A DNA stretch of 64,000 nucleotides from a virus (taxonomy: Duplodnaviria; Heunggongvirae; Uroviricota; Caudoviricetes): the IMG/VR virus record IMGVR_UViG_2872147552_000001; one strand, written 5' to 3'. A model generated the notes under the pieces. The model saw nothing but the letters and a program-made list of their open reading frames with translations. It had not been told where the DNA came from and ran no database searches. A program made the position numbers and the translations under genes. Shown one piece after another: positions 1 through 31,150 of this stretch; position 1 is the first letter of the stretch; each line of letters begins with the position of its first letter.

Positions 1-125
1 TGCACGGCTGAGACGCTCAACCAAACGCGCCAGCTTTTCCATGTCCCGAATAAGATATCGCTTAAATGCTTTCTGGCTGTTATTGAGTCTATTCCCCGCA
101 CGTTTGAACTGATGCGCATCGTATT

Positions 126-470: not shown

Positions 471-549
471 GCTCTCTCCCTGTTGTTGTCGGTCGCTCTC
501 ATTACTGGCCAAAAAACCTTTCGACCAAAAGTAAATAATGCGACTGGCG

Positions 550-1817: not shown

Positions 1818-1861
1818 AACGCATTCTCTCTACATGGGCGGCTTTCGCCGCCCAATATTGA

Positions 1862-2782
1862 TTATTCCTGTGCAGCAGTGACTTCTACGGTCGCTGTCGC
1901 TTTGTGGCTACCATCTTGGGTAGTAACCTCGATTGTGGCAGTACCAGCCGCAACGCCAGTTACAACACCGGTTTCGCTATCCACCGTTGCAAATTCGGTA
2001 TTTTTGGATTCCCAAGTAACGGTTTTATTTGTTGCTCCTGCCGGCTCGACATTTGCGGTCAGCTGAACAGTTTTGTTTGCCTCAACGTTTGTGCTATTTG
2101 GGTCGATTTCGACGCCGGTAACAGCCACAACAGGCGCAGTTACTTCCACCGTTGCAGTTCCCTTTTTGCTGCCATCTTGGGAAACGATCTCAATCGTCGC
2201 AGTGCCAACTTCTACACCAGTAACGTTCCCGCTCTGGTCTACCGTTGCCTTATCTTCATTTTTGGAAGACCAGGTAACAGCCTTATTCGTCGCATTTGAC
2301 GGCTGAACATTCGCTTTCAGACTGACTGATTTCCCTTTCTCAACAGACGTTGATTCTGGCGTTACCGTTACGGATTGAACGGCTACCGGATTTACGGTGA
2401 CTTCCACTGAAGCGGAAAGCTGGGTTTCCTGATCAGTTGCAGTAATTTTTACTTTGCCTGGTGCTACGCCAGTTACTAATCCAGTGCCGTTAACGGTTGC
2501 AATTTGGTCATTGGCTGACTTCCAGGTGAATGAACTGGCACTCTTACCCATAGTAATACCTGCACTAAGTTGAACAGTTTTCCCAACCAAAACTGACGGT
2601 GAAGCCGGGGTTATGTTTACGGATTGGGAGAAGGGAACCGCCTGCAAACAAGCAGATAGCTGACTTTGTTGTCGCTCGGTTAAAGGTTCATCGGAGATAG
2701 AATTGGTAAATCCGGCACGGCACATATGCCCCGTAAAATCCGAAAATGTCTCTTCCGTAATCTTCATCTTTTGTTCTGGCAT
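1862..2782 (-). CDS. Ig-like (Big_2-type) repeat protein, probable capsid decoration or fibre protein
   Basis: Three tandem ~80-aa repeats of the pattern VTGV..G.ATI.V...DGS.K.TATVEVTA typical of bacterial Ig-like group 2 domains; located directly after the major capsid gene; AGGAG RBS. Confidence 0.6.
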   Translation of the reverse strand: MPEQKMKITEETFSDFTGHMCRAGFTNSISDEPLTERQQSQLSACLQAVPFSQSVNITPASPSVLVGKTVQLSAGITMGKSASSFTWKSANDQIATVNGTGLVTGVAPGKVKITATDQETQLSASVEVTVNPVAVQSVTVTPESTSVEKGKSVSLKANVQPSNATNKAVTWSSKNEDKATVDQSGNVTGVEVGTATIEIVSQDGSKKGTATVEVTAPVVAVTGVEIDPNSTNVEANKTVQLTANVEPAGATNKTVTWESKNTEFATVDSETGVVTGVAAGTATIEVTTQDGSHKATATVEVTAAQE

Positions 2783-2855
2783 TTCTCGCTCCTACAAAAA
2801 GGGTGGGCGTATAGCCCACCCTTTAACATAGATAATTACTTATCTACTTCACTGA

Positions 2856-3731
2856 TTAAATTTTTACATTGGTCAGTGCAGCGATAGCCTTATCGTGCTT
2901 ATTCGCCAGAGAGCAGTACCACTTCACACGGGTACGTACTGCGTCTTTGTTCTGTACAGTACCAATGTTTTCAACAACGATACCTGCGTTGTCGCCGCCA
3001 TACAGACCAGTAACGCCGTTCTCTTCTGACAGATGCAGGCAGTAGATGCTTGCTTTGCCAGAATCGGTCGGGATGAAGTCGTTGATGATGAACGGAACGC
3101 CGTTATGACACAGCATCGGACGACCGAAGTTCTCCATCATGATTTCAGACGGACCTACGTTTACTGTACGCAGCAGCGCACGGTAAGCACGCAGGTGCTC
3201 TGAACGCATCATGATGCAGTCAGCACCAAGATCTTTCACCGCATCGACCAGTTCGTCGAACATAGAGAAAGTCATAGATGCACCGGCGATATCGATCTTC
3301 TGATCTGCGTGCATCAGGCGTGGAATGCCGTCAAACGCCTTGTTGTTGGAGCTGGAGTCACCCAAAATCAGGTTGCGACGGAACGCACGAGCCAGACCTT
3401 TAACTTTCTGACGAACCTGAATAGCCAACTGGTTGTTGGTGTCGGCCATAGTGGTCGCCAGGAATTTATCAACGTCTACGTCACCAGCCAGAATACGCAG
3501 TTTCGCAACGCATTCTTCGAAGGTTGCTGCACCTTCAGGGATGGTGTCGTTAACGTCGATGAAGGTAGCTTCACTCAGCGTTTTTTCACGGTTGTACAGA
3601 TATGCCTTTGAATTAATTTTCATAAAAGGCAGGATGGCAAACAGGTCATCGCGATCGATGATAGTTTCGATCACACCCTGTTCAAGTTCGTTGTTAGACA
3701 GCTTTTCAGCTTCTTCACGCAGTAATGGCAT
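2856..3731 (-). CDS. major capsid protein (by position and size)
   Basis: 291-aa ORF between scaffold-like gene and Ig-like decoration gene in the order TerS-TerL-portal-scaffold-capsid. Confidence 0.55.
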   Translation of the reverse strand: MPLLREEAEKLSNNELEQGVIETIIDRDDLFAILPFMKINSKAYLYNREKTLSEATFIDVNDTIPEGAATFEECVAKLRILAGDVDVDKFLATTMADTNNQLAIQVRQKVKGLARAFRRNLILGDSSSNNKAFDGIPRLMHADQKIDIAGASMTFSMFDELVDAVKDLGADCIMMRSEHLRAYRALLRTVNVGPSEIMMENFGRPMLCHNGVPFIINDFIPTDSGKASIYCLHLSEENGVTGLYGGDNAGIVVENIGTVQNKDAVRTRVKWYCSLANKHDKAIAALTNVKI

Positions 3732-3756
3732 CTATCAATTCCCTTTGATTTAGATG

Positions 3757-4644
3757 TTACTTAAGTCCAATTTTCCCCAGACCGGAGGCCAACTTATCCA
3801 TAGTCGACTTGTTCTTCGGTTGGGATATTGTGTAGGTCGATTTGGAATGTGAGCCTACACCCTGCTTGGCTTCGCTACGCATCAATGCGTCAGCTTCCGG
3901 ATCTGCCCGCACAATGCGTTCAATCGCGGATTCAAACGGCAACGGCTTACCTTCACCGTCAACCAGAACAGCTCGTTCTTTGTGACCTGCCGGTTTGTCA
4001 TAACCCACTACGCTACCGTCTTCACCAACTTCAAAATGAGAACCGTAGATCACGCGGGCTTTTGCCGGGGTCATCAGAACTTTGTCACGTAGGAAGAGAG
4101 AGTTACTGAAGGAAGCGCCCACGGTCATCTCGACTAATTGAGATTTCAGTGATGCGTTTTCACTTTCCAGTGCTGCATAACGTTCGTCACGCTGTGCCAG
4201 CTCTGCCTGGTGTGCTTCGATCATCTGTTTTTTAACAGCATCGAACTCACCACGACGCTCCAGTTCAGCTTGCTCCGCCTCACGACGTGCGTTTTCTGCG
4301 GCCTGTTCAGCTTCTAAAAGCTGGCGAGCACGAGCCGGATCGATATCACCGTACTGAGCAAGCTGATCGGCCAATGTGCGCTCTTTCTCTTTGCGCTTCA
4401 TGTTCTCCTTCAGCAGTTCAGCACCAGCTTTCTTGGTTTTACGAAGTTCGGCCAGTAACTCTTCCTGAGTCATGCCAGCGTATTCGTCATCGCCCTTCGG
4501 CTGCTCTTTTTGTTCACCCTGTTTGTCAGGATCTTGTGTACTCTGCTCATTATCAGCAGCTACACCGCCAGCGCCTCCACGCTCATGCGCTTCAGCGACA
4601 TCCATCAGACCACGACGGGCCAAAAGCATTTGCCACAGATTCAT
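3757..4644 (-). CDS. scaffolding protein (coiled-coil, E/A/K/R/Q-rich)
   Basis: 295-aa highly charged helical sequence (ELLAELRKTKKAGAELLKENMKRKEKE...) between portal and capsid genes; AAGGAA RBS. Confidence 0.5.
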   Translation of the reverse strand: MNLWQMLLARRGLMDVAEAHERGGAGGVAADNEQSTQDPDKQGEQKEQPKGDDEYAGMTQEELLAELRKTKKAGAELLKENMKRKEKERTLADQLAQYGDIDPARARQLLEAEQAAENARREAEQAELERRGEFDAVKKQMIEAHQAELAQRDERYAALESENASLKSQLVEMTVGASFSNSLFLRDKVLMTPAKARVIYGSHFEVGEDGSVVGYDKPAGHKERAVLVDGEGKPLPFESAIERIVRADPEADALMRSEAKQGVGSHSKSTYTISQPKNKSTMDKLASGLGKIGLK

Positions 4645-4665
4645 AAAAATTCCTTTTGTTACTTA

Positions 4666-6240
4666 TCACTCGTTCTCTTGAGTAGATGAGTCCCCATTCC
4701 CTCGGGGTTGATCTTGCCCGCTTTCTTGGGCTGCACCACGATCATAAGTAAGTACTGACTTATTTTCAAGGGTATTTAGATCATTTTTTGGAGGAAAATT
4801 CAAGAGATCTTTATCAAATTCCTTTTTCATCGCCTCAGTAATGTTCGGGAAAATCTTCTCAATAAGCATTTCCATCTGGTGACGACGTACAGAGTCCGGT
4901 GCCTGAAGTAATGACAGTTTCTCGGCAACAGAAAATTCATCAGTAAGGCCACGAATATCGAAACTTTCTGGATACGCAATTAAAGAGTGGTCTTCGTCCA
5001 GATCTACCCCCATCCATTTCGCAACCAGTAGCATGATTTGGCGTTCAGCCCTTTCCAGACGCTCTGCTTTTGTGACAAGCAAGCTATTTACACGCTGGAA
5101 GTCATACATTTTTGCGGCACCAGATGAATTATCGATTCCCTGTGCGTTGTCCTGCTTCGTTCGCTCACCAGCTACACCAACTGAATGGTAGATTTCGTTA
5201 ATCACCGTCTTAATCGTAGTGATGATCATCTGAGCTTGTTTCGGGTCTGGTGACAGATAAAACGGCTGGTTTCCACCTTCAGAATCGTAGGTGAAGACTC
5301 GCTTTGTGCCCATTTCAAGCACTTTAGTGTGGTTTTCATCACCAGGTAAAAGCGACTGTACCGGTATAGCCAACTGGCTAAATGTCTGATCCTGAATAAT
5401 GGCATCAAGGTTTGACAGATAGTTTGCAACCGCACGATCAAGATAAGCGATATCATCGATCAACGATGGGCTGAAATACGGTGATTCACTTTCTCCAATA
5501 CAATCAACAGGAAACACAGGAACTACGCCGAGATTATGCTCACCGCTATCCTCTAAAATAACTTTTGCCTGACGGCGACCTGCTCCACCAGCGCCCTTCT
5601 TCACTTCCTCACGGAACAGATACCACTCGTTTTGTGTCCACAGACGATAACGTTGGTATTCCTGACCTGTAGAAGTAAAAGGATCTGCGTCATCACGAGC
5701 GACTTCCACAATTAACGCCCACAACATATTCCCGTCGTCGTCCCATGCCACATCCAGCATTTGCTGAGGTGAAATCCAGTAGGCGTAGGCGCGAGCATCT
5801 TTCTTTTTCTCGTCAGCTACTGACTCAACATCACCACTCATCGTGCTATCGACAACAACCCATATGCGACCGTAAATAGACGACTGCAAATCAATAGCGG
5901 CCATAAATGAGTCAATAGAGGCATTCTGGCGAGTCGCACGTTTCCAGAAATTGCGGATCTGCTCTGGTGCCTCTTCGATATTTCTATGAATGTCTTCTTT
6001 AAAGAGATATTTGTTGATGAGGTTTACCACCTCACGAGTGTGGTTGAAGCGATAAGCACGTTCAACTCGCTCCTTAAACTCCTGATCTCCCTCTTTAAAG
6101 TAACGAAAGATATTGTCTGTAAACCAACCACGCCCGCCAGCGTAAGTGCTGGCGAGGAAGTCCCAATGTTCTTTTTTCTTTTCGTATTCCGGGTGGCGTC
6201 GCGCCACCAGATCCTTAATTTGTTTGTCGTTCAATTCCAT
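4666..6240 (-). CDS. portal protein (by position and size)
   Basis: 524-aa ORF immediately downstream of the large terminase. Confidence 0.55.
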   Translation of the reverse strand: MELNDKQIKDLVARRHPEYEKKKEHWDFLASTYAGGRGWFTDNIFRYFKEGDQEFKERVERAYRFNHTREVVNLINKYLFKEDIHRNIEEAPEQIRNFWKRATRQNASIDSFMAAIDLQSSIYGRIWVVVDSTMSGDVESVADEKKKDARAYAYWISPQQMLDVAWDDDGNMLWALIVEVARDDADPFTSTGQEYQRYRLWTQNEWYLFREEVKKGAGGAGRRQAKVILEDSGEHNLGVVPVFPVDCIGESESPYFSPSLIDDIAYLDRAVANYLSNLDAIIQDQTFSQLAIPVQSLLPGDENHTKVLEMGTKRVFTYDSEGGNQPFYLSPDPKQAQMIITTIKTVINEIYHSVGVAGERTKQDNAQGIDNSSGAAKMYDFQRVNSLLVTKAERLERAERQIMLLVAKWMGVDLDEDHSLIAYPESFDIRGLTDEFSVAEKLSLLQAPDSVRRHQMEMLIEKIFPNITEAMKKEFDKDLLNFPPKNDLNTLENKSVLTYDRGAAQESGQDQPRGNGDSSTQENE

Positions 6241-6266
6241 TTGAATAACCTTAGATAATTACTTAC

Positions 6267-7523
6267 CTATCGAGAACCACCAAGAATAACACGGTTTTTG
6301 ACTGGATACCTACGATGTACTGGATAGCCCAATGCGTCTGCACTATGCTCAATGCCACCTGTCTTATCCATATCTCGTGTTCCAGGCTTGTAGATGACTT
6401 TTTCCAGTGAATCAATCAAATGCTTGCACTTCGGATCGATATACAGCCGGATATCTCCAGATGCGGTCATCAGCATTCGGTTAACAGCATTAACACGATC
6501 CGCAATTGGCGGGTGCTTTTTCGAATAATCGACACGTAAGAATCCCTTCTCTTTGAATATGTCGACGTCAGACTCCCCGCGAGCATGTTGGCGATAAGCA
6601 CCTGCCGGATCTGGAAATACCGTTATCTGTGATTTCCAGCGCCAGAAGCGTCTCTCAAGCTCATCACAAACCTCTGCCGTGTTAGAGGAAAAGAGCACCA
6701 ATTCATCAATTGCCCATAGCTCACCATTTGGCTGAGGTTGCAAAATTACTGAAGACATCGGGTCAATGTTGAAGTCCTGCCCTACCCATATAGGCAACCG
6801 AGGGTTGAACTGAAGCGGTTTTACATGCACGTTACGATCGAACGGGTAGTAAACGCGCCCGGACATGTTCTCAAAGCTCGCCAGGTACTCCTGAGCGAAC
6901 GATTTCGGGTCCATATCGTTCTTAGCAGCTTCAATTTCCGCCGTAGGTACAAACGGAGAATCGGCAGTTACAAACTGCCAGCTCTTCCACTGTCCCTTTC
7001 TTTGCAGCTCTACGTTCTGGCCTATAGTCCACAGTTTGTGAAATTCCGAGAAGCCTTTTGGCGTACCAATGATCAGTGCACCGCCGCGTGTCGATGAAAG
7101 AGTAGGTCGTAACACCTTGTACCAGGTGTCAGCCTTCATATCCTGAAATTCATCAAGCACTACAAAATGCAACGCTACGCCGCGCAGAGTGTCAGGCTTA
7201 TCAGCACCTTTGAGGGCGATCTCCGAACCGTTCTTCAACACGATTGTCATCGTGGTGTCGTTCTTTTTCCTAACCCACTTACGAGGCAGAACTTCCTGTA
7301 GATCGTCCCACAAAATCTGGCGAGCCATCTGGTAAGTAGGAGCGACATACCAGACCCTTTGCTTTTTTTCCTTTGCCGCCGCACGAATAATAGTGGAGAT
7401 CGACAACCGGGATTTTCCCCAGCGTCGACCAGCACAAACAACTTTAAATCGATGCGGAGACTGGAAGACTTTCATCTGTCCAGAATGCAGTTGCACAAGA
7501 CTGAGCGAGGACGGGATTGCCAT
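6267..7523 (-). CDS. terminase large subunit
   Basis: Walker A-like CAGRRWGKS near the N-terminus followed by nuclease-type C-terminal half; ATG overlaps TerS stop (TAATG coupling). Confidence 0.8.
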   Translation of the reverse strand: MAIPSSLSLVQLHSGQMKVFQSPHRFKVVCAGRRWGKSRLSISTIIRAAAKEKKQRVWYVAPTYQMARQILWDDLQEVLPRKWVRKKNDTTMTIVLKNGSEIALKGADKPDTLRGVALHFVVLDEFQDMKADTWYKVLRPTLSSTRGGALIIGTPKGFSEFHKLWTIGQNVELQRKGQWKSWQFVTADSPFVPTAEIEAAKNDMDPKSFAQEYLASFENMSGRVYYPFDRNVHVKPLQFNPRLPIWVGQDFNIDPMSSVILQPQPNGELWAIDELVLFSSNTAEVCDELERRFWRWKSQITVFPDPAGAYRQHARGESDVDIFKEKGFLRVDYSKKHPPIADRVNAVNRMLMTASGDIRLYIDPKCKHLIDSLEKVIYKPGTRDMDKTGGIEHSADALGYPVHRRYPVKNRVILGGSR

Positions 7524-8155
7524 TATTCGTCCTCCCCTTTACTTCCATCATCTGTCGCATCAAATTCGCTTAGAGCTTCTTCTTCTAACGTCTCAAGCAA
7601 TTCGTCATCGATGATTTCAGGCTCGTCGTCTTCCTGACGTAATTTCGCCACCTGGGAAGGCGTAAGCTCACCAAATACCAGGTTCGGAATTTCTTCCTCG
7701 TCATTTTCCGCATGATCCATGCCCAATGCTTTGGACGAAACTTCAAAGCATTTTGCAAGGGTATTACTGGCTCTCTGTAAGCTCTTGAGAGAATCCTCAA
7801 TCGCCCCTAAAGGCTTACCCTCACGTTTGGCCGTAGTGACTTCGACCATCACCATCTGCCCCAACGCATACGCCCAGCCGTCATAACGTGTACGACGTTC
7901 TTCTATCTTTTCCGCACGGGCTTTAGCGCGAAGCTCTGCGTCAGATTTAAGAGACTCACGAACCATCTTCCCAACAGAGTCCGCGCCTTTCTCTAATCCT
8001 CGCTTTTTGAAATGTCTGGAGAGTGTTTCACGACGAATGCCGTACTCTTCCTCCAGCTTTGAGAGTGTATATTCGCCTGACGTCCATTTGGCTTCAGCTT
8101 CGGCCCACTCCGCTGGTGTCAGGCGAGTTTTTACCTCGTCTTTTTCGACCGTCAT
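7523..8155 (-). CDS. terminase small subunit (HTH DNA-binding)
   Basis: 210-aa protein with N-terminal HTH-like segment and acidic C-terminal tail, translationally coupled to TerL; GAGGGA RBS. Confidence 0.6.
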   Translation of the reverse strand: MTVEKDEVKTRLTPAEWAEAEAKWTSGEYTLSKLEEEYGIRRETLSRHFKKRGLEKGADSVGKMVRESLKSDAELRAKARAEKIEERRTRYDGWAYALGQMVMVEVTTAKREGKPLGAIEDSLKSLQRASNTLAKCFEVSSKALGMDHAENDEEEIPNLVFGELTPSQVAKLRQEDDEPEIIDDELLETLEEEALSEFDATDDGSKGEDE

Positions 8156-8249
8156 AGATCCCTCTAAAACACACAGAGCGCGTCCATGCGCTCTAAAACA
8201 ACTTGTTTACTGAATCTGCTAACCAACTTGTTTTCTGGGGTGTTTAATT

Positions 8250-8349
8250 AGGTCTGGGCATGTCTTATTAAGCCTGCTTCCGTATATATTTAATAAGTTA
8301 CTTATTATTTATATATACAGAAGCAGGTCTTTAAATAAGCTCCCAGACC
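8250..8349. repeat. nested inverted-repeat element, copy 1 (outer arms AGGTCTGGG/CCCAGACC, inner arms GCCTGCTTCCGTATATA/TATATACAGAAGCAGG)
   Basis: Long AT-rich palindrome seen directly in sequence upstream of the terminase operon; near-identical copy at 38751-38850. Confidence 0.6.
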
Positions 8350-19848: not shown

Positions 19849-20178
19849 TTACTCGAATACTTCAAGAAACTCCTGAACGTCCCAATGCTGGACGAGGTGA
19901 AGATAGACCTTAGAAATCACGTCATTTTCGCTATCGCATGTGAAGTAGTACTTCTGGCTGCGGTTGTATGTGTCCACACAAAATTCGCTCATATCCATAA
20001 AGTCAGCATCTTCACCCATGTCGCAAATCATCAAAGCAGGTGCGTCATCACGAGTCATCAGCTCAAGCACCCACCGCGAATTGATCAGAGTGGAAGACCA
20101 ACCTTCTAACTCATAAAACTGATCAAACTCTTTTTGAGTTAATTTCTTGATTTGGTTGATGTCGATATTTGCAAACAT
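19849..20178 (-). CDS. hypothetical early protein (acidic)
   Basis: Trimmed to ATG at 20178 with AAGGA RBS; promoter module copy at 20191-20224. Confidence 0.45.
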   Translation of the reverse strand: MFANIDINQIKKLTQKEFDQFYELEGWSSTLINSRWVLELMTRDDAPALMICDMGEDADFMDMSEFCVDTYNRSQKYYFTCDSENDVISKVYLHLVQHWDVQEFLEVFE

Positions 20179-20540
20179 AAAGCAATCCTTAAACAACTTG
20201 TTTTCTTGATGGTGTTATTATCGCAATAACGCACAGGCGAAAAAGGATTTTATTCCGGTGAATGTGGTTTTGGCAGTGAGTTTTCAGGTTCAGTACCGAG
20301 TACACTTTTTACATTATTCTGATTTAGTGGCCGAAGGTGGCTGGTGGGCAGAATAATCATCTCCCCGAAAACCTACTGAAATCGATTGTGACCCGTTGGC
20401 TGTCTGGCACAATTACGCTGTAGCTGGGCATTCAGAGGGAGTCCAACGGTAAGTTAGTCCGCCTGCACGTGAGCGCCTCTCTTCTTCCCGCACATTACAG
20501 GTGGGTAGCCGCAACTCTCCCTCACGCTATACCGGTACGC

Positions 20541-20672
20541 CGCCGTTCCTGAACCGGCATCGAGCCTTTTCCCGAAATCCACACAGGCAACTCGACCGTT
20601 TCCCTGAAAACCTCCAGCCGTTCCCCGAAGGCAACCCAGCCGTTTCTGTAGCGGGATGCAGCTTTTTCCCTG
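20541..20672 (+). repeat. direct-repeat array B (6 copies of GCCGTTCC/CCGTTTCC-type motif)
   Basis: GCCGTTCCTGAACC, CCTTTTCCCGAAATCC, ACCGTTTCCCTGAAAA, GCCGTTCCCCGAAGG, GCCGTTTCTGTAGCG, GCTTTTTCCCTGTATGG within about 130 bp. Confidence 0.55.
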
Positions 20673-21731
20673 TATGGACCGAAGGCTGACCGTAGGGGTG
20701 TTACGGGGGATAAAATCAGGAGTTGAATAAATACGAAAAAGGAGGCGACACCCCTCCTTCCCTCCCCACTTATACATACCTGGCTTCTTCGCTATACATG
20801 TTGTGTTTTATTCGTGTTTTATCTGTCTCAACCTCTCTATGGACGTTAACACTCACTCCTTCCAGAACGTTCTATACGGCGACTAATTCTGTTGGTGAAT
20901 TGGGTGTGTTGTTCTCTCTGTCGGTGTATGTGGTTTCGTTCGTTTTGCGGTGGTTCTTCTATGGGGTGTTCTCGTCGTTTTGGTGATTGTTCTTCTCCGT
21001 GTATGGAGTAATGGCAGGTGGGCGATTCCTTTCGTTGTTGTGTTTGAGTTGTTTGTCTGGAGTGTGAAAGGCTTTTGTAGTTATTCGTGTATTGGGTAAT
21101 GGCGTTTCCCGTGATTGTTCTGTTTCGTGTCTTTTGGGATTGAGAGAAGCCTTGCGGTTACAGGCTTCGTTGGGGGTTCAGTGATTCTGGTGTTTCTTCG
21201 CTGTTTGGGTAATGGCGTGTCGTGGGTATCGCGCGTATGAATGTTTTCGGATTGCCTGTGAAAGTTAGGTTGGTTGTCCGGTAGCCTGGGGAGAAGAGGT
21301 GGGTCTTTTCGGTAGCCTGCCATAAAGAGGTTGGTTGTTTTTGGAAATGGCATATGTGTTATTTAGTTGTTTTGTTATGCCTGAAAATAAGTTGTTTATA
21401 TGGTTATGTAACGCAACGGGAACGATTTTGAGCGTGTGTTTTTGTTGGTAGTGTGTTGGGTCGTCTGTGGTGAAAATTGGACGCTGTGGCGCTGTCTGCT
21501 GCGTAGAATTACGGGTATAAGCAGTGATGTGTGAAAACGTCAATTTTTTAGACCAAATAGGGTGAAAGCGTTGATGTTTCGTTGATCTGTTATTTAGTTG
21601 TTTTCTTGTTTGTATAAACAACTATAACCTATTGATATTTAAGGATGTGATTGCGGGTATGGAAGGGGAGTAGTGGCGATCAACGGATTCTTATAGAAAA
21701 GAATCAAATTGTGACCGCCATTATCAATGTT

Positions 21732-22466
21732 TTACTTAGTTTTGTTTAGCAGAGAGAGAATTTCATCACTAATTTCACTCGCCTGTTTGATAGCCAATGC
21801 AGTTACCTCTTCTATGGTTGGTGACTGTTGATGCTCATGTTTGGTTTCAGTTATGACAATGTGTTCTTCACCTGAATTTGCGCATAGTGCCGCATTGACT
21901 ATAAGGTTTGAGTAAGAATTTAGCAGAGCACTGTTGATAAACGCTTTCACGGTATTACTGTCTGCACCAAATACATCTTTTCTGACCGCTTCAGCCTCAC
22001 AGCGAACCCCTGCAGCAACATCGTGAAGAACATGTATGGCCTTGGAGCTTGTTTGTTCACAGTACTCAATCATTATTGTCGAATTGTTCTGTTCAACAAA
22101 TGATCTGATGCCTGACGATTCACCCATAGCATCGAAGGCAGCGTGACCCGCACTAGTAGAGATATCTTCGTAGAGTTCTTCATCGCTATCTTTTTCTTCA
22201 GGTGTCGAGGTGTCTTCATCGTCGTAATAGATATTGCCTTTAATCAGTGTTTTGGATACTTGATATAAACAATAAGAGACGAGATTTAAGCATTGGATTT
22301 TAGCTGTATTGTCCTTTGTCGCCTCGCTCTTCAGTTCTTTCGCTTCTTCAGTAAGGCTGTTGATAAGACTTTGTATTTTTTCCAACGCGTTAGGTGCACA
22401 CTCCGCGTTGTCCATAAAGAATTTATAACCAGTTCCAGGGATTTCTAAACTTTTCAACTTTTTCAT
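21732..22466 (-). CDS. hypothetical protein (AT-rich, acidic)
   Basis: 244-aa ORF of lower GC content than its neighbours. Confidence 0.4.
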   Translation of the reverse strand: MKKLKSLEIPGTGYKFFMDNAECAPNALEKIQSLINSLTEEAKELKSEATKDNTAKIQCLNLVSYCLYQVSKTLIKGNIYYDDEDTSTPEEKDSDEELYEDISTSAGHAAFDAMGESSGIRSFVEQNNSTIMIEYCEQTSSKAIHVLHDVAAGVRCEAEAVRKDVFGADSNTVKAFINSALLNSYSNLIVNAALCANSGEEHIVITETKHEHQQSPTIEEVTALAIKQASEISDEILSLLNKTK

Positions 22467-22511: not shown

Positions 22512-22811
22512 TTACCAGTTCCAGCACTCAAGCCCTTCAACGACCGGTGCACCACAATCAAAATGTACAGAGTCAAAGCCTACATCAAGTACTTTCTGAA
22601 TGTTAGCAATCGCGCCTTCGGATATACCATATCGACGCAAGTCCTCTTTCCAGACATCATCCTGTAACCCGGCGTGGACAATACAACCGCCGTCAATTTG
22701 CGAAACCCAATCCAGCTCATTGCTTGCGATCATGAATCGGCGAGCATCTTCCTCTGATGTATGAGATGAACTGATCAATGCCACCTGGTAGGCTTGGGTA
22801 ATGTTCAACAT
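22512..22811 (-). CDS. hypothetical protein
   Basis: Track start 22820 is GTG; ATG at 22811 has GGAGTGG RBS; preceded by a complete two-operator promoter module at 22821-22892. Confidence 0.45.
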   Translation of the reverse strand: MLNITQAYQVALISSSHTSEEDARRFMIASNELDWVSQIDGGCIVHAGLQDDVWKEDLRRYGISEGAIANIQKVLDVGFDSVHFDCGAPVVEGLECWNW

Positions 22812-22820
22812 TTCAACCAC

Positions 22821-22892
22821 TCCGAAACAATTTGTTTTCTTATGTGGTTTATTATCTCCATCAACAAAAGGCAGAAAACAAATTGTTTTAGG
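22821..22892 (-). promoter_or_regulatory. complete early promoter module (two AAACAA-N-TTGTTT palindromes flanking GATAAT)
   Basis: Best-preserved copy of the module; the host-like insert begins immediately upstream. Confidence 0.5.
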
Positions 22893-22972
22893 TACTGTGT
22901 AAATCAGAAGGGATTGTGTCTATATGAAAATGCCCGGCGTGTTGCCGGGCATTGCGAAGAGAGGTTGTTTAA

Positions 22973-25006
22973 TTACTTAACCTGGTGGCCAGGTTTAGCA
23001 CCAGCATCCGGGCTTAACAGGAAGATATCTTTCCCGCCGGGGCCAGCAGCCATCACCATGCCTTCAGAGATACCGAAGCGCATTTTACGTGGTGCCAGGT
23101 TAGCCACCATAATGGTGTGACGACCAATCAGTGCCTGTGGATCTGGATAAGCGGAACGGATGCCTGAGAAGACATTACGCTTTTCACCACCGAGATCCAG
23201 CGTCAGGCGAAGCAGTTTGTCAGAACCTTCTACAAACTCTGCGTTTTCAATCAGCGCCACGCGCAGGTCAACTTTGGCGAAGTCGTCAAAGGTGATAGTT
23301 TCCTGAATCGGGTCGTCAGCCAGTGGGCCAGTTACCGGTGCGGCTGTGGCTTTCACTTCTTCTTTGGATGCTTCCACCAGTGCTTCAACCTGCTTCATAT
23401 CGATGCGGTTATACAGTGCCTTGAACGGATTTACTTTATGGCCCAGCAGCGGTTGCTGGATACCATCCCAGGTCAGTTCTGTATTCAGGAATGCTTCTGC
23501 ACGTTCAGTCAGTTTCGGCAGTACCGGCTTCAGGTACGTCATCAGCACGCGGAACAGGTTAATGCCCATAGAGCAAATCGCCTGCAGATCGGCATCGCGA
23601 CCTTCCTGCTTCGCCACCACCCACGGAGCCTGTTCATCGACATAGCGGTTAGCCAGGTCAGCCAATGCCATGATTTCACGGATAGCTTTACCAAATTCGC
23701 GGCTTTCCCATGCTTCGCCAATCACTTCAGCGGCATCAGTAAAGGTTTTGTACAGTTGCGGGTCAGCCAGTTCGCTTGCCAGCACGCCGTCAAAACGCTT
23801 GTTTATAAAGCCTGCATTACGGGAGGCCAGGTTAACCACTTTGTTCACGATATCGGCATTCACGCGCTGAACGAAATCCTCCAGGTTGAGATCGATATCA
23901 TCAATGCGCGAAGAGAGTTTCGCAGTGTAGTAGTAACGCAGGCTGTCGGCGTCAAAATGATTCAGCCAGGTGCTGGCTTTAATAAAGGTGCCGCGAGACT
24001 TGGACATCTTCGCGCCGTTCACCGTCACATAGCCGTGAACAAACAGGTTGGTCGGCTTGCGGAAGTTGCTGCCTTCCAGCATGGCAGGCCAGAACAGGCT
24101 GTGGAAGTAAACAATATCTTTACCGATGAAGTGGTACAGCTCGGCGGTGGAGTCTTTCTTCCAGTATTCATCGAAGCTGGTGGTATCGCCGCGCTTGTCG
24201 CACAGATTCTTGAAGGAACCCATGTAGCCAATCGGCGCGTCCAGCCAGACGTAGAAATATTTGCCCGGCGCGTCCGGAATTTCAAAACCGAAGTAAGGCG
24301 CATCGCGGGAGATATCCCACTGTTGCAGGCCGGATTCAAACCATTCCTGCATTTTGTTCGCCACCTGCTCCTGCAACGCGCCGCTGCGGGTCCATGCCTG
24401 CAACATTTCGCTGAAAGAAGGCAGATCAAAGAAGAAGTGTTCGGAATCACGCATTACCGGGGTAGCGCCAGAAACCACCGATTTCGGCTCGATCAATTCA
24501 GTCGGGCTATATGTTGCGCCGCAGACTTCACAGTTATCGCCGTATTGATCTGGCGCTTTACATTTCGGGCAGGTGCCTTTTACAAAACGATCCGGCAGGA
24601 ACATGCCTTTTTCCGGGTCGTACAACTGAGAGATAGTGCGGTTTTTAATAAAACCGTTCTCTTTCAGGCGAGTATAGATAAGCTCAGACAACTGACGGTT
24701 CTCTTCGCTGTGCGTCGAGTGATAGTTGTCATAGCTGATGTTAAAGCCTGCGAAATCAGTCTGGTGTTCCTGACTCATTTCGCCAATCATCTGCTCCGGT
24801 GTGATACCAAGCTGCTGCGCTTTCAGCATGATCGGCGTACCGTGGGCATCGTCGGCACAGATGAAATTAACCTCGTGGCCGCGCATTCGCTGGTAACGAA
24901 CCCAGACATCAGCCTGGATGTGCTCCAGCATATGGCCGAGGTGGATTGAGCCGTTAGCGTACGGCAGCGCGCACGTCACCAGAATTTTCTTCGCGACTTG
25001 GGTCAT
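22973..25006 (-). CDS. metG: methionyl-tRNA synthetase (chromosomal-type, near-identical to E. coli MetG as recalled)
   Basis: 677-aa product from [26 protein letters not shown] with HIGH and KMSKS motifs and the C-terminal tRNA-binding domain; track ORF extends 43 codons upstream of the true ATG at 25006; own hairpin terminator at 22931-22957. Confidence 0.95.
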
Positions 25007-25163
25007 AGTAGGCATTACTTCTTTGTAGTGAAAAGGGGCTTGATAGTAACAAAATGGCCTTATGTCTGCCATGTGATAACAGCATTTCTCATAAATGATT
25101 AAATGTCGTAGCTGGAGTACACTACAAGGCGACAATTGCGCAAATTAAAATAAAGGAGACGGG

Positions 25164-26264
25164 ATGAGCGAGTCCAAATCGCCGGATGCCCTGAGAGCAA
25201 TGGTAGCCGGTACGCTGGCTAATTTTCAGCACCCAACCCTGAAACACAACCTGACTACGCTTAAAGCGTTACACCATGTTGCGTTGATGGATGACACACT
25301 GCATGTCGAACTAATCATGCCTTTCGTGTGGAATAAGCCTTTTGAAGACCTGAAAGAGCAATGTAGTGGTGATCTGCTCCGTATCACTGGCGCAAAGGCT
25401 ATTGACTGGAAGCTGTCGTACAACATTGCCACGCTTAAGCGCGTCAAAAACCAACCAGGCATTAATGGCGTTAAGAACATTATCGCCGTCAGCTCAGGCA
25501 AGGGCGGCGTGGGTAAATCCTCCACGGCGGTAAACCTGGCACTGGCGTTGGCTGCTGAAGGTGCGAAAGTTGGTATTTTGGATGCCGATATCTATGGTCC
25601 ATCAATTCCAACCATGCTGGGTGCGGAAAACCAACGTCCAACCTCACCTGACGGTACTCACATGGCACCTATCATGTCTCATGGCCTGGCAACCAACTCT
25701 ATTGGTTATCTGGTCACCGACGACAATGCAATGGTGTGGCGTGGACCGATGGCCAGCAAGGCGCTGATGCAGATGTTGCAGGAAACTCTATGGCCTGATC
25801 TGGACTATCTCGTTCTCGATATGCCGCCGGGCACTGGTGATATTCAGTTGACGCTGGCGCAGAACATTCCTGTAACTGGTGCGGTTGTGGTAACTACGCC
25901 GCAAGACATCGCGCTGATCGATGCGAAGAAAGGCATTGTGATGTTCGAAAAAGTCGAAGTGCCGGTACTGGGTATCGTCGAAAACATGAGTGTGCATATT
26001 TGCAGTAACTGCGGTCATCACGAGCCAATTTTTGGCACCGGTGGCGCACAGAAACTGGCCGAGAAATACAACACGCAGTTGTTAGGCCAAATGCCACTTC
26101 ATATCTCTCTTCGTGAAGATCTGGATAACGGAACACCAACCGTTATTAGTCGTCCAGATAGCGAATTTACGGCTATTTATCGTGACCTCGCAGATCGCGT
26201 TGCCGCCCAAATGTATTGGCAAGGTGAAGTAATACCTGGCGAAATCGCATTCCGCGCAGTGTGA
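25164..26264 (+). CDS. apbC: Fe-S cluster carrier ATPase ApbC/Mrp
   Basis: 366-aa product with deviant Walker A SSGKGGVGKSSTAVNLA and CxxC motif (ICSNCGHHEPIFG); divergent from metG exactly as in the enterobacterial chromosome; AAAGGAGA RBS. Confidence 0.95.
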   Translation: MSESKSPDALRAMVAGTLANFQHPTLKHNLTTLKALHHVALMDDTLHVELIMPFVWNKPFEDLKEQCSGDLLRITGAKAIDWKLSYNIATLKRVKNQPGINGVKNIIAVSSGKGGVGKSSTAVNLALALAAEGAKVGILDADIYGPSIPTMLGAENQRPTSPDGTHMAPIMSHGLATNSIGYLVTDDNAMVWRGPMASKALMQMLQETLWPDLDYLVLDMPPGTGDIQLTLAQNIPVTGAVVVTTPQDIALIDAKKGIVMFEKVEVPVLGIVENMSVHICSNCGHHEPIFGTGGAQKLAEKYNTQLLGQMPLHISLREDLDNGTPTVISRPDSEFTAIYRDLADRVAAQMYWQGEVIPGEIAFRAV

Positions 26265-26269
26265 TAAAA

Positions 26270-26290
26270 AGGCGGTGCATTGCACCGCCT
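26270..26290 (-). terminator. hairpin terminator shared between apbC and the UmuD'-like gene
   Basis: GGCGGTGCATTGCACCGCC stem-loop; on the minus strand it is followed by a T-run. Confidence 0.5.
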
Positions 26291-26301
26291 AATCAGTTCT
26301 C

Positions 26302-26691
26302 CTACATCACGGGACAATCATCAAACTCGCCACTTCTTGCGTCGTTGATAATGTGAGTGATCACACCAAACACGGCATTGCTGCCCGTGCATCCATCGTC
26401 ATCCTTTGGCAATGCTTCCTTCTTACCGGTTCTTAAATCCTCCAGATGCTGACGTGGGTACTTCCGGTATCTTTTTACGCGATATTCCCCATCCAGAGCG
26501 CATACAAGCAGAGAACCATCAACCGGGGTAAGCGAGGAATCGACCACCAGCAATGCACCCTGTAATATTCCCTCACGATGATGACTATCAGCTGCCCTCA
26601 TGAAGTAGGTCGCTGAAGGATGTCTAATTATCTGCTGATCAAGAGAAATACGGCTCTCAGCATAATCCGCCGCAGGAGAAGGGAAGCCCAT
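26302..26691 (-). CDS. UmuD'-like S24 peptidase-fold protein (pre-processed form, P1 HumD-like)
   Basis: Product begins MGFPSPAADY..., i.e. at the position created by RecA-mediated cleavage of UmuD; conserved Ser and Lys of the S24 dyad retained (ADSH, VKR); GAGGG RBS; strong LexA box immediately upstream. Confidence 0.65.
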   Translation of the reverse strand: MGFPSPAADYAESRISLDQQIIRHPSATYFMRAADSHHREGILQGALLVVDSSLTPVDGSLLVCALDGEYRVKRYRKYPRQHLEDLRTGKKEALPKDDDGCTGSNAVFGVITHIINDARSGEFDDCPVM

Positions 26692-26707
26692 AGCGTTTTG
26701 CCCTCAA

Positions 26708-26727
26708 TACTGTTCATTTATACAGTA
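26708..26727. promoter_or_regulatory. LexA (SOS) box TACTGTTCATTTATACAGTA
   Basis: Matches the TACTGT-N8-ACAGTA consensus; lies 17-36 nt upstream of the UmuD'-like start codon. Confidence 0.75.
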
Positions 26728-26784
26728 TACATGAAAGAAGCTCACTCAGTGCAACTGATCGGTACATAGCACCAGACAAAGGAA

Positions 26785-26847
26785 CGTTATTTTCTCGAAC
26801 AAGAAAAGGTAGAAAACAAATTGTTTAAGGCCACAACTAGTGGCCTT
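26785..26847 (-). promoter_or_regulatory. truncated early promoter module plus terminator hairpin AAGGCCACAACTAGTGGCCTT
   Basis: Near-identical to the unit at 31041-31120 down to GTTATTTTC at about 26786, where similarity stops. Confidence 0.5.
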
Positions 26848-26863
26848 AATGGAGAAGGGATGC

Positions 26864-27427
26864 TTATTGGCTATGGCTAAAAATCAAATGAGACACTTCA
26901 TTTGGTTGTAGCTCGTCAAGATCCGGGGCCACAAAACCTTTTCCAAAAGACTTCACAAGTGATTCACCAGCCGCATCATTGTCACCTATTACGCGAAAGT
27001 CATACGGCAGCATTGCCAGTTGACGACGTAATCCTGCTGAGAAAGTCGAACCTAACAGCGCCCACGAATTTCCGCCCGCGTTGTGCACTGCTGCACTTTT
27101 AAAAATCGACTCAGTTATCCATATCGGTCCATCTTTTAAAGGAAGATAGGTTCCCCATAGTAGCTGTCTGCCGTTCGCTCGTGTGAAATACCGGGCCATC
27201 TTCGGATTGCTATGCTGCTTAGGAGCGCCTGGTCTGTATGTCTGATACCCGGCCAACATCCCATCAAACCTGTATAGAGGGAACGTAACAACTCCTTCGC
27301 TTTCATCGATCCACTGTCTATATGGATGCACATCATGGCGGTAGTTACGAGTTAGCAAATGAGCTTCCAGCTTTCCATATTTGGTCATAACTTCGCATCC
27401 CTCATAACACTTCCCATTTATCACCAT
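26864..27427 (-). CDS. Toprim-domain protein (primase-like)
   Basis: Conserved glutamate segment IWITESIFKSAAV and DxD motif RVIGDNDAAGESL typical of Toprim domains. Confidence 0.45.
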   Translation of the reverse strand: MVINGKCYEGCEVMTKYGKLEAHLLTRNYRHDVHPYRQWIDESEGVVTFPLYRFDGMLAGYQTYRPGAPKQHSNPKMARYFTRANGRQLLWGTYLPLKDGPIWITESIFKSAAVHNAGGNSWALLGSTFSAGLRRQLAMLPYDFRVIGDNDAAGESLVKSFGKGFVAPDLDELQPNEVSHLIFSHSQ

Positions 27428-28217
27428 ATTTCTCCATAGCTCTTAGCCAGTAAACATGGCCACTAGGCATAGTGATGTGAGGCTCGCCAAACTCTTCTCC
27501 ATGCACATCAAAGATGTCCCCAACAGAGAATTGGGGGATTTCTACGCCGTTTTCACCTATATGCGTAATTCGTATACGTTTCGGTTGAGATTCTCCCCCT
27601 TTGAGCGAGTTGTTCACTGCTCTGGCAATCTTCTCCCGCAATTGCTGCGTTCCGTGGTACTGAACCGCAATATCCCTCAACTCATTCACCAGTTCTCGAA
27701 TCTGGTGATCTTTAAGCTCATTATTTGAGTGATGGGTAACAACTCTGGTTAATTCACCCTTGTCTTTTGCTCTTACGTATGCAGCTCTTGTGCATTCGAC
27801 CCATGTATTACCGCCTACATTAACTTCGTAGATTAGGCTGGACTTATCTGTCAATTCGGAACAAATACGGGCCGTGGTCTGGCAACTAGAGCATTCGCAG
27901 TTATCGCGGAAACCGTGATCTACCGGTCGAGAAAGAGGTTTAACTTTTTCATCCAACTTCATCACAGCATCGTGATAAGCGTTCCAGCCGTCATCTTTAC
28001 CAAGTTGATAAATCTCTGAAGGCTCCATGTAGTCTATATCGCAACCTTCTTCATCCGATCTATCTGGTCGCTTCCCTGGTAATCGCTCATAAAAACGATT
28101 TCTGTCTCGACGTTCGGCTCTCAGTGCTAACGCAAGAAGTTGCTCAAGCGAGGTATTTGCACCAGCAATAATTTCATTGAGAATATCTTCTGTGAGATCT
28201 TTCGCTACCGTGCTCAT
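27402..28217 (-). CDS. hypothetical Cys-rich protein (possible zinc-binding partner of the Toprim protein)
   Basis: 271-aa ORF with clustered cysteines (CECSSCQ ... C); overlaps downstream gene by 26 nt. Confidence 0.3.
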   Translation of the reverse strand: MSTVAKDLTEDILNEIIAGANTSLEQLLALALRAERRDRNRFYERLPGKRPDRSDEEGCDIDYMEPSEIYQLGKDDGWNAYHDAVMKLDEKVKPLSRPVDHGFRDNCECSSCQTTARICSELTDKSSLIYEVNVGGNTWVECTRAAYVRAKDKGELTRVVTHHSNNELKDHQIRELVNELRDIAVQYHGTQQLREKIARAVNNSLKGGESQPKRIRITHIGENGVEIPQFSVGDIFDVHGEEFGEPHITMPSGHVYWLRAMEKYGDKWEVL

Positions 28218-31040: not shown

Positions 31041-31120
31041 CGTTGTTTTCTAGTTGTGGTTATTTTCACAAATAAGAAAAGGTAGAAAACAATTTATTTA
31101 AGGCCACAACTTATGGCCTT
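31041..31120 (-). promoter_or_regulatory. early promoter/operator module plus terminator hairpin AAGGCCACAACTTATGGCCTT
   Basis: Hairpin, inverted TTGTTTTCT/AGAAAACAA elements and -10-like sequence upstream of the HD hydrolase start. Confidence 0.45.
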
Positions 31121-31150
31121 TATTTATTCATGCCGAAGGATTTGTAGCGT

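Follow-up and report, generated by a model that had tools for sequence, protein, structure and literature searches.

A metG-apbC cassette of chromosomal ancestry in SSU5-supergroup phage-plasmids of Escherichia and Shigella

How does a complete gene for methionyl-tRNA synthetase (MetRS), accompanied by the iron-sulfur carrier gene apbC, come to lie among phage modules? The question arises from a 64,000-nucleotide stretch of DNA assigned to the Caudoviricetes (IMG/VR record IMGVR_UViG_2872147552_000001), referred to here in its entirety as the window. A preliminary description had read the pair as enterobacterial chromosomal DNA set in a phage or phage-plasmid backbone, and had offered two accounts of its presence: capture from the host by recombination at repeated promoter modules, or a chimera of assembly or construction. 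As discussed in the following sections, the chromosomal origin of the pair and the nature of the backbone are upheld. However, the feature is neither an artefact nor a fresh capture of host DNA; it is long established in its phage-plasmid family.

The gene pair and the slot that holds it

The divergent arrangement first described, in which genes for a 677-residue MetRS and a 366-residue ApbC/Mrp face away from each other across 157 bp, is confirmed (Table 1). The start of metG used here yields the N-terminus MTQVAKK; the mechanical open reading frame continues in frame further upstream, to 25135. MetG scores 1020.9 bits against the NCBIfam equivalog NF001100 over residues 4-677 (cut-off 587) and 697 against TIGR00398 (cut-off 336), and contains the Pfam domains tRNA-synt_1g, Anticodon_3 and tRNA_bind. 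The anticodon-binding domain (PF19303) occupies residues 416-540, and the C-terminal tRNA-binding and dimerisation domain is matched by PF01588 at 581-674 and by TIGR00399 at 543-677. The class I signature motifs, HLGH (residue 22, the HIGH motif) and KMSKS (residue 333), and the four-cysteine zinc knuckle CPKC...CEVC (145-161) of the connective peptide are intact. Compared with E. coli K-12, 668 of the 677 residues are identical (98.7%; 94.1% for the metG nucleotide sequence). The nine differences are S112T, S151A, N245D, S275T, V276T, S319T, V442I, R538K and A554T, at least three of which (S275T, S319T and R538K) are common to the chromosome of Escherichia sp. E1V33 and all phage-plasmid alleles compared. 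Judging by the identity to K-12 MetG and a dN/dS of 0.00-0.02, the phage-plasmid enzyme probably aminoacylates tRNA-Met.

Table 1. Positions of the cassette, its hairpins and the neighbouring modules in the window, with the basis of each assignment
Feature	Position	Strand	Basis
Left promoter-operator module, left edge of variable island	22821-22892	-	Sequence, palindromes, homology of relatives
Probable metG terminator: hairpin 3' of the stop codon, with a short U-run behind it	22929-22953	-	Fold
metG, complete long-form methionine-tRNA ligase, 677 aa	22973-25006	-	NCBIfam, Pfam, motifs, K-12 identity
Divergent intergenic region, 157 bp; presumed native metG and apbC promoters	25007-25163		Alignment, identity profile
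apbC/mrp, Fe-S cluster carrier P-loop NTPase, 366 aa	25164-26264	+	NCBIfam, Pfam, motifs, K-12 identity
GC-rich hairpin between convergent apbC and humD	26270-26290		Terminator scan, folds
humD, UmuD'-like translesion polymerase subunit, P1-like	26302-26691	-	NCBIfam, P1 identity
LexA (SOS) box TACTGTTCATTTATACAGTA, upstream of humD	26708-26727		Sequence; within P1-homologous segment
Right module	26786-26850	-	Repeat family D1, terminator scan and fold, module comparison, homology of C. freundii phage-plasmid
Complete sister module, upstream of HD-domain gene	31041-31123	-	Sequence, repeat identity, architecture

ApbC scores 759.3 bits against the NCBIfam equivalog NF008669 (cut-off 348), matches Pfam PF10609, and carries the deviant Walker A motif GKGGVGKS at residue 112 and the CxxC cluster-binding motif, CSNC, at residue 280. 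It shares 346 of 365 residues with K-12 Mrp, its N-terminus is three residues shorter, and the gene is 82.3% identical in nucleotides. Both proteins had been credited with only a few substitutions relative to E. coli, which holds for MetG but understates the divergence of ApbC. In the intergenic region, the parts alignable with K-12 are limited to about 35 bp beside metG and the apbC ribosome-binding site, and the identity profile falls from ~96% to ~50% at ~25040. A consensus scan of this region revealed no strong sigma-70 match; in such scans for sigma-70 promoters and terminators, match counts were no higher than in shuffled sequence.

The two genes had also been described as having hairpin terminators of their own. 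The metG hairpin bears this out, with a folding energy of -19.1 kcal/mol (z -4.70) that was equalled by none of 200 shuffles; it is not homologous to the K-12 terminator, as homology to K-12 begins at 22972. The hairpin beyond apbC is real as well, with folding energies of -17.5 kcal/mol on one strand and -18.6 kcal/mol on the other, but the terminator scan places its nine pairs and tail (TTTTATCACA) on the minus strand. Because the U-tract is thus on the humD side, this hairpin is read as the terminator of humD, and it probably acts as a bidirectional stop. The predicted hairpins separate metG and apbC from the flanking phage operons.

The promoter modules around the pair belong to a family repeated across the window. 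On the minus strand, the left module consists of a palindrome (O1), a GATAAT-like -10 element, a second palindrome (O2), a Shine-Dalgarno sequence and the start of a DUF5983 gene, with the palindromes at 22825-22839 and 22874-22888. This architecture recurs 5' of many minus-strand genes, and the window holds 23 copies of the core palindrome GAAAACAAATTGTTT, where 0.46 would be expected. The copies at 26786 and 31059 are 88% identical over 65 nt, which substantiates the repeated units of the preliminary description. In the right module, the toprim gene's terminator hairpin (26825-26849) is combined with palindrome O1 (26812-26826) and a promoter core. As had been proposed, this module is truncated; the second operator half present in the other two copies is missing, and a P1-like LexA box and the humD leader are found instead. 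The humD product scores 219.8 bits against the NCBIfam HumD equivalog, and positions 26303-26738 are 85.9% identical in nucleotides to P1 humD. In P1, a LexA site is annotated upstream of humD, in the segment homologous to the region of the window's LexA box.

The insert starts directly after the left module, in agreement with the original reading: the relative pLAO4 is homologous as far as 22888, and a C. freundii phage-plasmid as far as 22892. Its right boundary had been placed at 26300; the variable island instead reaches ~26785 and includes humD. In Citrobacter and Enterobacter relatives, ydfZ lies between the equivalent modules. When the two flanks were joined and used as a query for an empty site, relatives with other cargo were found, and no plasmid record covered at least 80% of the directly abutted flanks. 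The modules delimit a variable cargo slot that holds metG, apbC and the LexA-controlled humD, an arrangement that is compatible with the shuffling of cassettes between phage-plasmids.

Distribution and descent of the cassette

The source element is an SSU5-supergroup phage-plasmid. Positions 11-8290 of the window, encoding terminase and capsid, are 81.5% identical to positions 1-8328 of SSU5, and Klebsiella SSU5-like phages match the window at 79-80% over ~18 kb. This homology, together with the module repeats, supports the earlier view of a phage-plasmid backbone with the pair between repeated promoter modules. The group to which the element belongs also includes pLF82/Cyrano, p09EL50 and the pWPMR2-like plasmids. 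Virion formation and extrachromosomal lysogeny have been demonstrated experimentally for its close relative Cyrano (PMC9928086), and by likeness the element of the window may do the same. Plasmid records carrying the block are circular and measure 107-113 kb, and a 99%-identical plasmid has annotated ParB-family partition genes a few kb away from it. A possible tie to a phage tRNA-Met was looked into; the window contains no tRNA gene. Rfam searches of the whole window returned nothing at gathering thresholds, and those of the noncoding stretch 20100-21800 returned a chance-level match alone.

The metG-apbC block is a fixed, conserved part of the Escherichia/Shigella clade of these phage-plasmids. 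It occurs in one piece with both junctions, taken as one alignment that spans 80% or more of 22700-26900, in 184 independent complete PLSDB plasmids, and also in 4 phage records. At 95.9-99.8% identity, the block is present in some 190 plasmids, whose hosts are E. coli, Shigella, E. albertii and E. fergusonii, and 213-220 of 5,426 complete E. coli genomes (~4%) contain it, plasmid-borne in every case. The closest relatives of the window are E. coli plasmids (99.8%, NZ_CP073971.1) rather than the S. sonnei clade, whose plasmids of 107-108 kb carry the block and its flanks at 97.6-97.7% identity to the window. Related elements share the block and its position with diverged sequence, a pattern that the preliminary description had associated with an old resident gene pair, and metG-apbC is accordingly such a pair.

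These records bear directly on the proposed chimera, according to which chromosomal DNA was misjoined into a phage-plasmid contig. The local rise in GC content (~52% against ~46%; 0.51-0.52 in the cassette against 0.40-0.50 in adjacent genes) and the chromosomal nature of the genes are compatible with such an error, and nothing more argues for it. Against it stand identical junctions in the 184 plasmids and 4 phage records above and in 213 complete E. coli genomes; one plasmid aligns without gaps at 99.0% across 22512-27500 and so spans both junctions. Moreover, the distance between the block and any E. coli chromosome is at least 5.8% in metG and ~18% in apbC, so misjoined host reads cannot be its source. 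A misassembly is virtually inconceivable.

Recombination at the repeated modules might instead have taken the locus recently from the chromosome of the present E. coli host, but such a capture is extremely improbable as well. It would account for the chromosomal gene order and divergent orientation, the 98.7% identity of the MetG protein and the modules on both sides of the island. However, the 5,424 chromosomal metG copies of E. coli are only 92.9-94.2% identical to the block, separated by a clean gap from the plasmid alleles, which are at least 95% identical. The apbC gene lies at a dS of ~1.6 from K-12, with a lowered GC3 of 0.51-0.53 against 0.60-0.78 in chromosomes. In addition, chromosomal homology ends at both stop codons. 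The modules do bound the slot, as the recombination proposal held, but they cannot account for how the locus was first captured, since chromosomes are devoid of them. In phylogenetic trees, both genes group with Escherichia (100% and 90% bootstrap), and the phage-plasmid alleles form a clade of their own. The divergent metG-mrp order matches the E. coli chromosome, consistent with the enterobacterial origin first proposed, and the sequence comparisons place the derivation of the pair long ago, in a chromosome of the Escherichia lineage and not in that of the present host.

Purifying selection on metG and apbC is very strong within phage-plasmids. Pairs of alleles differ by 0-4 nonsynonymous against 19-107 synonymous changes in MetG, and by 0 against 9-26 in ApbC. 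The perfect conservation of ApbC suggests that it may be as important as metG.

The two genes nevertheless differ in their divergence from Escherichia. The dS between the phage-plasmid metG and K-12 is 0.29, equal to the distance between K-12 and E1V33; its GC3 is not lowered, and it is nested among Escherichia alleles. In contrast, apbC sits on a long branch that is sister to a monophyletic Escherichia. Between phage-plasmid alleles, dS reaches 0.28 for metG and at most 0.11 for apbC. A tentative reading, to which we give somewhat less than even weight, is that the cassette combines an older part and a younger one: apbC, with most of the intergenic region, would be ancient, and metG would have been overwritten later, possibly repeatedly, by gene conversion from the chromosome of an Escherichia other than E. 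coli. A faster apbC clock alone fits the discordance poorly, as apbC evolves no faster than metG within phage-plasmids, although part of the long apbC branch falls on the phage-plasmid side. Among the matches listed in a search for the metG donor were E. coli-type sequences and one other Escherichia species; chromosomes of E. albertii, E. fergusonii and E. marmotae did not feature there. If metG was indeed overwritten, a multi-copy transmissible element would be exchanging repeatedly with an essential chromosomal gene and would form a reservoir of divergent metG alleles.

Expression and proposed role

The metG-apbC pair is, with good confidence, a chromosome-derived accessory ('moron') cassette of Escherichia/Shigella SSU5-supergroup phage-plasmids that would supply the host with an extra source of MetRS and ApbC. 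In an LF82/Cyrano lysogen grown overnight in LB, normalised reads were 91.7 for apbC, 148 for humD and 16.1 for metG, with structural genes at ~7-10, and apbC is listed as a moron at 9 times background (PMC9928086). For metG, the published counts correspond to ~1.6 times background, a value calculated from one transcriptome in which cross-mapping with the 94%-identical chromosomal metG is possible. Cyrano is inducible by ciprofloxacin and maintained at ~5.5 copies per chromosome (PMC9928086). In the plasmid (lysogenic) state, the pair would be transcribed from its own divergent intergenic region, and the host would thereby gain a second, multi-copy source of near-wild-type MetRS and ApbC.

The same genes could instead serve the lytic cycle, as auxiliary metabolic genes that support Met-tRNA charging and the maturation of Fe-S enzymes during phage replication rather than lysogenic conversion. 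MetRS is encoded by a few large phages, such as Microcystis phage MaAM05 and phages above 600 kb; the metG of the window lies on the early-gene strand and its Cyrano counterpart is weakly expressed in the lysogen, and strong purifying selection is compatible with any useful function. This role is nonetheless unlikely. The metG gene is set apart from the upstream phage promoter by a terminator hairpin and by apbC, which is oriented convergently; apbC is clearly expressed in the uninduced Cyrano lysogen, and metG reads drop in macrophage conditions where humD goes up. Furthermore, a near-identical MetRS of the host is already abundant.

Two other roles were considered. Because metG is essential, the cassette might act as a plasmid-retention device, so that a host whose chromosomal copy has been damaged or lost could no longer do without the element; the slot can hold stability functions, since P1 has the phd-doc addiction module just downstream of humD. 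However, chromosomal metG is kept essentially everywhere (5,424 chromosomal places in 5,426 E. coli genomes, carriers included), and apbC is not essential in E. coli, so retention is very unlikely to be the function. Alternatively, by analogy with plasmid-borne second aminoacyl-tRNA synthetase genes such as mupA, additional target dosage might protect against an inhibitor or toxin directed at MetRS, and carriage at several copies, as in Cyrano, would raise that dose. The nine substitutions in MetG are conservative, and those common to the E1V33 chromosome and the phage-plasmid alleles make an insensitive enzyme still less likely. No naturally occurring inhibitor of MetRS with a bearing on enteric habitats was identified in this analysis, and apbC would be left unexplained; protection of this kind therefore has very little probability.

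The favoured role, an accessory source of MetRS and ApbC in the lysogen, also bears on antimicrobial persistence. In PMC12452169, which cites Tam et al. (2024), expression of the phage-plasmid metG of pWPMR2 is linked to an antimicrobial-surviving subpopulation. Published metG persistence phenotypes arise from reduced or altered MetRS function. The hyper-persistence mutations sought in the MetG of the window (delta-ETIT 569-572, G263S/S264F and a C-terminal frameshift) are absent; ETIT, G263, S264 and the full C-terminus are all intact. Because the allele carries none of these known mutations, any persistence effect would stem from the dose, or dose heterogeneity, of Met-tRNA charging and not from a defective enzyme. 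If an extra wild-type-like metG has any effect on charging capacity, an increase is the one to be expected, and the step from an extra copy to persisters is not explained by sequence.

Comparison with known systems

The metG-apbC pair is already known as conserved, annotated and published cargo of its phage-plasmid family, where it is ordinary. Some details may be new and leave this category unaffected: the complete conservation of the ApbC protein, the apparently novel discordance between metG and apbC in their divergence from Escherichia, and the anatomy of the slot, with its repeated promoter-operator modules, P1-derived humD and the ydfZ of relatives.

The metG-mrp(apbC) locus of E. coli K-12 (b2114/b2113) contains the same two genes, adjacent and divergent, with lengths within three codons. 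In addition to the nucleotide differences given above, its intergenic region measures 131 bp against 157 bp in the window and is mostly unalignable, its terminators are different, and the yeh genes that flank it are missing from the window. The MetRS enzymes of large lytic phages (Microcystis phage MaAM05 and phages above 600 kb) are also virus-borne, but they are 24-30% identical and reside in very large lytic genomes, whereas the metG of the window closely resembles the host gene and is carried by a temperate element in plasmid form. The humD-phd-doc region of P1 shares humD and the LexA box at 86% identity. The neighbours downstream of humD differ, being the phd-doc addiction module in P1 and apbC and metG in the window, the backbone of which is SSU5-like and not P1-like.

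A close counterpart is Cyrano (pLF82; OV696614), an SSU5-like phage-plasmid of E. coli LF82. Its block and left flank are 98.8% identical to those of the window, its MetG protein is 100% identical, and the order DUF5983-metG-apbC-humD is shared. The two elements diverge to the right of humD, where coverage ends at query position 3993 (~26692 in the window). The Cyrano record labels apbC 'Septum site-determining protein MinD'.

The metG of pWPMR2-type elements in Shigella sonnei is likewise an additional copy on an SSU5-supergroup phage-plasmid of ~108 kb (Tam et al., 2024, doi 10.1101/2024.10.27.24316207, via PMC12452169, bioRxiv 10.1101/2025.09.12.675607). These citing papers (PMC12452169; bioRxiv 10.1101/2025.09.12.675607) do not discuss apbC, humD or the anatomy of the junctions. 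They describe pWPMR2-like elements as prevalent in S. sonnei and report them also in E. coli clonal complexes. With reference to Tam et al. (2024), the phage-plasmid metG is associated there with multidrug-resistant epidemic S. sonnei, as well as with a subpopulation of survivors from which resistance is more likely to arise (PMC12452169). This link to S. sonnei, together with the presence of the same cassette in ~4% of complete E. coli genomes, gives the metG-apbC pair its clinical relevance.

The metG-apbC pair and the element that carries it

The preliminary description of a 677-residue methionine-tRNA ligase (MetRS) and a 366-residue ApbC/Mrp protein, encoded divergently 157 bp apart with hairpins at the pair's ends, is confirmed by the open reading frames, equivalog scores and predicted folds (see table). 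The window MetRS scores 1020.9 bits against equivalog NF001100 (cut-off 587) and matches the full range of MetRS Pfam domains, the C-terminal tRNA-binding one among them, with HLGH, KMSKS and the four-Cys zinc knuckle all intact. ApbC scores 759 bits against NF008669 (cut-off 348) and retains its Walker A and CxxC motifs. Identity to the E. coli K-12 proteins is 668/677 residues for MetG and 346/365 for Mrp, the latter without any difference across residues 86-295.

Features of the metG-apbC region (window coordinates)
Feature	Position	Strand or orientation	Remarks
Complete module	22821-22892		precedes DUF5983 gene, putatively driving it
Hairpin after metG	22929-22953		stable (fold)
metG (MetRS)	22973-25006	minus	677 aa from MTQVAKK; ORF list and sequence
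apbC	25164-26264	plus	366 aa; ORF list and sequence
Hairpin between apbC and humD	26270-26290
humD (HumD-family UmuD' homologue)	26302-26691	convergent with apbC	86% identity to P1 humD
LexA box of humD	26708-26727		within segment of 86% identity to P1
Module without O2	26786-26850		upstream terminator hairpin, O1 and core kept; P1-like LexA box and humD leader in place of O2

Salmonella phage SSU5 (81.5% in the terminase-capsid region), SSU5-like phages of Klebsiella (79-80%) and Escherichia phage Cyrano (96.9%) all align collinearly with the left 22 kb of the window. Cyrano is pLF82, an SSU5-like phage-plasmid that makes virions, is ciprofloxacin-inducible and has a copy number of about 5.5 per chromosome (PMC9928086). 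Close relatives of the window element are circular plasmids, 107-113 kb in size and non-mobilizable, that carry ParB-family genes. According to a large genomic survey, pWPMR2-like elements belong to the SSU5 supergroup and form a conserved clade, mostly from S. sonnei and also reported in E. coli clonal complexes.

Positions 20190-21739 (~1.5 kb) contain no credible open reading frame. Their minus strand is very A/C-rich (plus-strand GC skew +0.33, AT skew -0.27), and a G-rich, structured-looking segment follows the A/C-rich part at about 20440-20800. An Rfam search of the stretch returned no matches, and it is unannotated in RefSeq relatives. It is conserved at 67-78% in the E. coli relative pLAO4 and a Citrobacter freundii phage-plasmid; a long noncoding RNA is one possible reading, an origin-like region another.

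Distribution of the block and its distance from chromosomes

An assembly or construction chimera, offered earlier as an alternative, is ruled out by the recurrence of both junctions. The 4.2-kb stretch 22700-26900 occurs unbroken in 184 plasmids from PLSDB and in four phage records (Cyrano, PhiR41_1 and two CMS-2020a records); among 5,426 complete E. coli genomes, 213 also have it, plasmid-borne every time. Carriers belong to E. coli, Shigella sonnei, E. albertii and E. fergusonii, and one plasmid aligns gap-free at 99.0% across 22512-27500. The metG-apbC block alone occurs in about 190 plasmids at 95.9-99.8% identity; the remaining full-length matches there come from records of 0.5-5.4 Mb, well beyond the size of these plasmids and mostly chromosome-sized. 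Hundreds of RefSeq plasmids already have the cassette annotated, and phage-plasmid-borne metG is already published (Tam et al., as cited in PMC12452169).

In one E. coli phage-plasmid (NZ_CP075739.1, 86682-91272; database match H163), a transposase gene is annotated inside the metG-apbC span and the block aligns in two pieces. MetRS genes are otherwise rare among phage records (28/50,697, several being unverified fragments). The metG of OR850913.1 (fetched sequence L086, 'Salmonella phage S.Kent 1-2-1', 5,272 bp, UNVERIFIED_ORG) has 86.7% nucleotide identity and a dS of 0.89 to the window copy, a distance like that of Salmonella chromosomal metG, so it is probably host DNA and not a phage gene. 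Other MetRS matches among the phage records include several short unverified contigs of this kind.

Homology to the K-12 chromosome spans only stop codon to stop codon (22972-26260, 88.4%), with 94.1% identity for metG and just 82.3% for apbC. In the set of complete E. coli genomes as a whole, chromosomal metG (5,424 copies) has 92.9-94.2% identity to window metG, and every copy at least 95% identical is plasmid-borne. A recent capture from the host is ruled out by these values, no close chromosomal copy being found among complete E. coli genomes. The block occupies the same position in relatives and has diverged from chromosomes, a pattern that the preliminary description had itself named as arguing for an old resident gene pair, and this is how the comparison marks metG-apbC. 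The interpretation given there is partly supported, in that the chromosomal origin of the pair stands.

In CP170191.1, a record labelled Enterobacter hormaechei strain B56 chromosome, the metG-apbC region (2755-6035 of fetched sequence L004) matches E. coli K-12 without a difference (100% over 3,281 bp), which makes mislabelling or contamination of the record probable.

Selection, discordant ancestry and function

Among phage-plasmids, ApbC shows no amino-acid changes against 9-26 synonymous differences, and MetG 0-4 nonsynonymous against 19-107 synonymous ones (dN/dS <=0.015), which points clearly to both proteins being in use. The dS between window and K-12 metG is 0.29, and that between K-12 and Escherichia sp. 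E1V33 is 0.28. For apbC, the window to K-12 value (~1.6) exceeds that of K-12 to Citrobacter or Salmonella (1.2-1.35). Identity to K-12 shifts abruptly near 25040, inside the intergenic region. The GC3 of metG (0.61) resembles K-12 (0.625); that of apbC (0.51-0.53) lies between chromosomal values (0.60-0.78) and the backbone (0.38-0.47), a shift towards the latter. In neighbour-joining trees, metG and apbC both cluster with Escherichia (bootstrap 100% and 90%), the phage-plasmid metG alleles nested among Escherichia alleles and the apbC alleles placed on a long branch as sister to Escherichia, itself monophyletic. A faster apbC clock as the sole cause of this discordance fits poorly, because apbC evolves no faster than metG within phage-plasmids. 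We tentatively favour an ancient capture of the pair, after which metG would have been overwritten by an Escherichia allele. The discordant ancestry may be the sole part of these results that is new.

Normalised reads for Cyrano in LF82 (overnight LB) were 91.7 for apbC, 148 for humD and about 7-10 for structural genes; metG, at 16.1, is only weakly expressed, with cross-mapping from chromosomal metG possible. The Cyrano study counts apbC, which it names 'septum site-determining protein', as a moron expressed at 9x background. Citing Tam et al., PMC12452169 associates expression of metG from the S. sonnei phage-plasmid pWPMR2 with a subpopulation that survives antimicrobials. Persistence rises when MetRS function is altered or reduced (PMC11004401; PMC6977076). 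The phage-plasmid allele contains none of the persistence-raising metG mutations of these studies, so any effect would have to arise through dose or dose heterogeneity, a step that the sequence does not explain. A lytic-cycle helper role of the pair and target-dose protection against a MetRS inhibitor are weaker readings, as is essential-gene addiction, against which speaks the retention of chromosomal metG by plasmid carriers among complete E. coli genomes.

Promoter modules, the cargo slot and humD

The palindrome GAAAACAAATTGTTT is present in 23 copies in the window, where 0.46 would be expected. A recurring minus-strand unit (O1 palindrome, GCCTT motif, GATAAT-like -10, ~12 nt, O2 palindrome, Shine-Dalgarno sequence, start codon) stands before many minus-strand genes and has the layout of a putative repressor-controlled promoter. 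AAACAA-N-TTGTTT is found at 16 loci from 8196 to 58313 (e.g., 17568, 18053, 19706, 20191, 22825, 35627 and 58301), directly ahead of the ribosome-binding sites of numerous minus-strand genes and ~12 nt past a GATAAT-like -10; it looks like a putative operator of a global early-gene regulator.

The truncation reported for the right-hand module is real (see table). Homology between pLAO4 and the window ends at 22888, with different genes beyond; in further E. coli relatives, the sequence from 26742 on, right of the humD LexA box, gives way to a theta-subunit gene and a type I restriction system. An equivalent module pair encloses ydfZ in Citrobacter and Enterobacter SSU5-like plasmids. With homology ending at modules and alternative cargo in relatives, the variable island comprises metG, apbC and humD (22893 to ~26785). 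The modules mark a hotspot for cargo, in keeping with cassettes being exchanged among phage-plasmids. Of the earlier proposal of capture through repeated modules, the module-bounded slot survives; module recombination as the origin of the capture does not, because chromosomes lack the modules, which cannot explain the first capture.

Adjoining the island, a toprim-domain protein (26864-27427) has no Pfam matches and 48-49% identity to DNA primases of ~44 kb Kagunavirus-like siphophages; its gene is found in only part of the sister phage-plasmids.

Homology to P1 covers humD and its LexA box (26303-26738) at 86%, although the backbone is SSU5-like, and the match to P1, like that to some sister plasmids, stops within a few bases of 26738-26742. 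These abrupt ends suggest that phage-plasmids of the P1 and SSU5 groups have swapped a discrete segment. Downstream of humD, P1 has phd-doc, where the window element has apbC and metG instead. In the Citrobacter freundii plasmid NZ_CP114568.1 (4001-4782 of fetched sequence L088) and similar Enterobacter plasmids (database matches H239-H244), the gene between the modules, ydfZ, encodes a putative selenium delivery protein, whereas the slot of the window element holds metG-apbC-humD.
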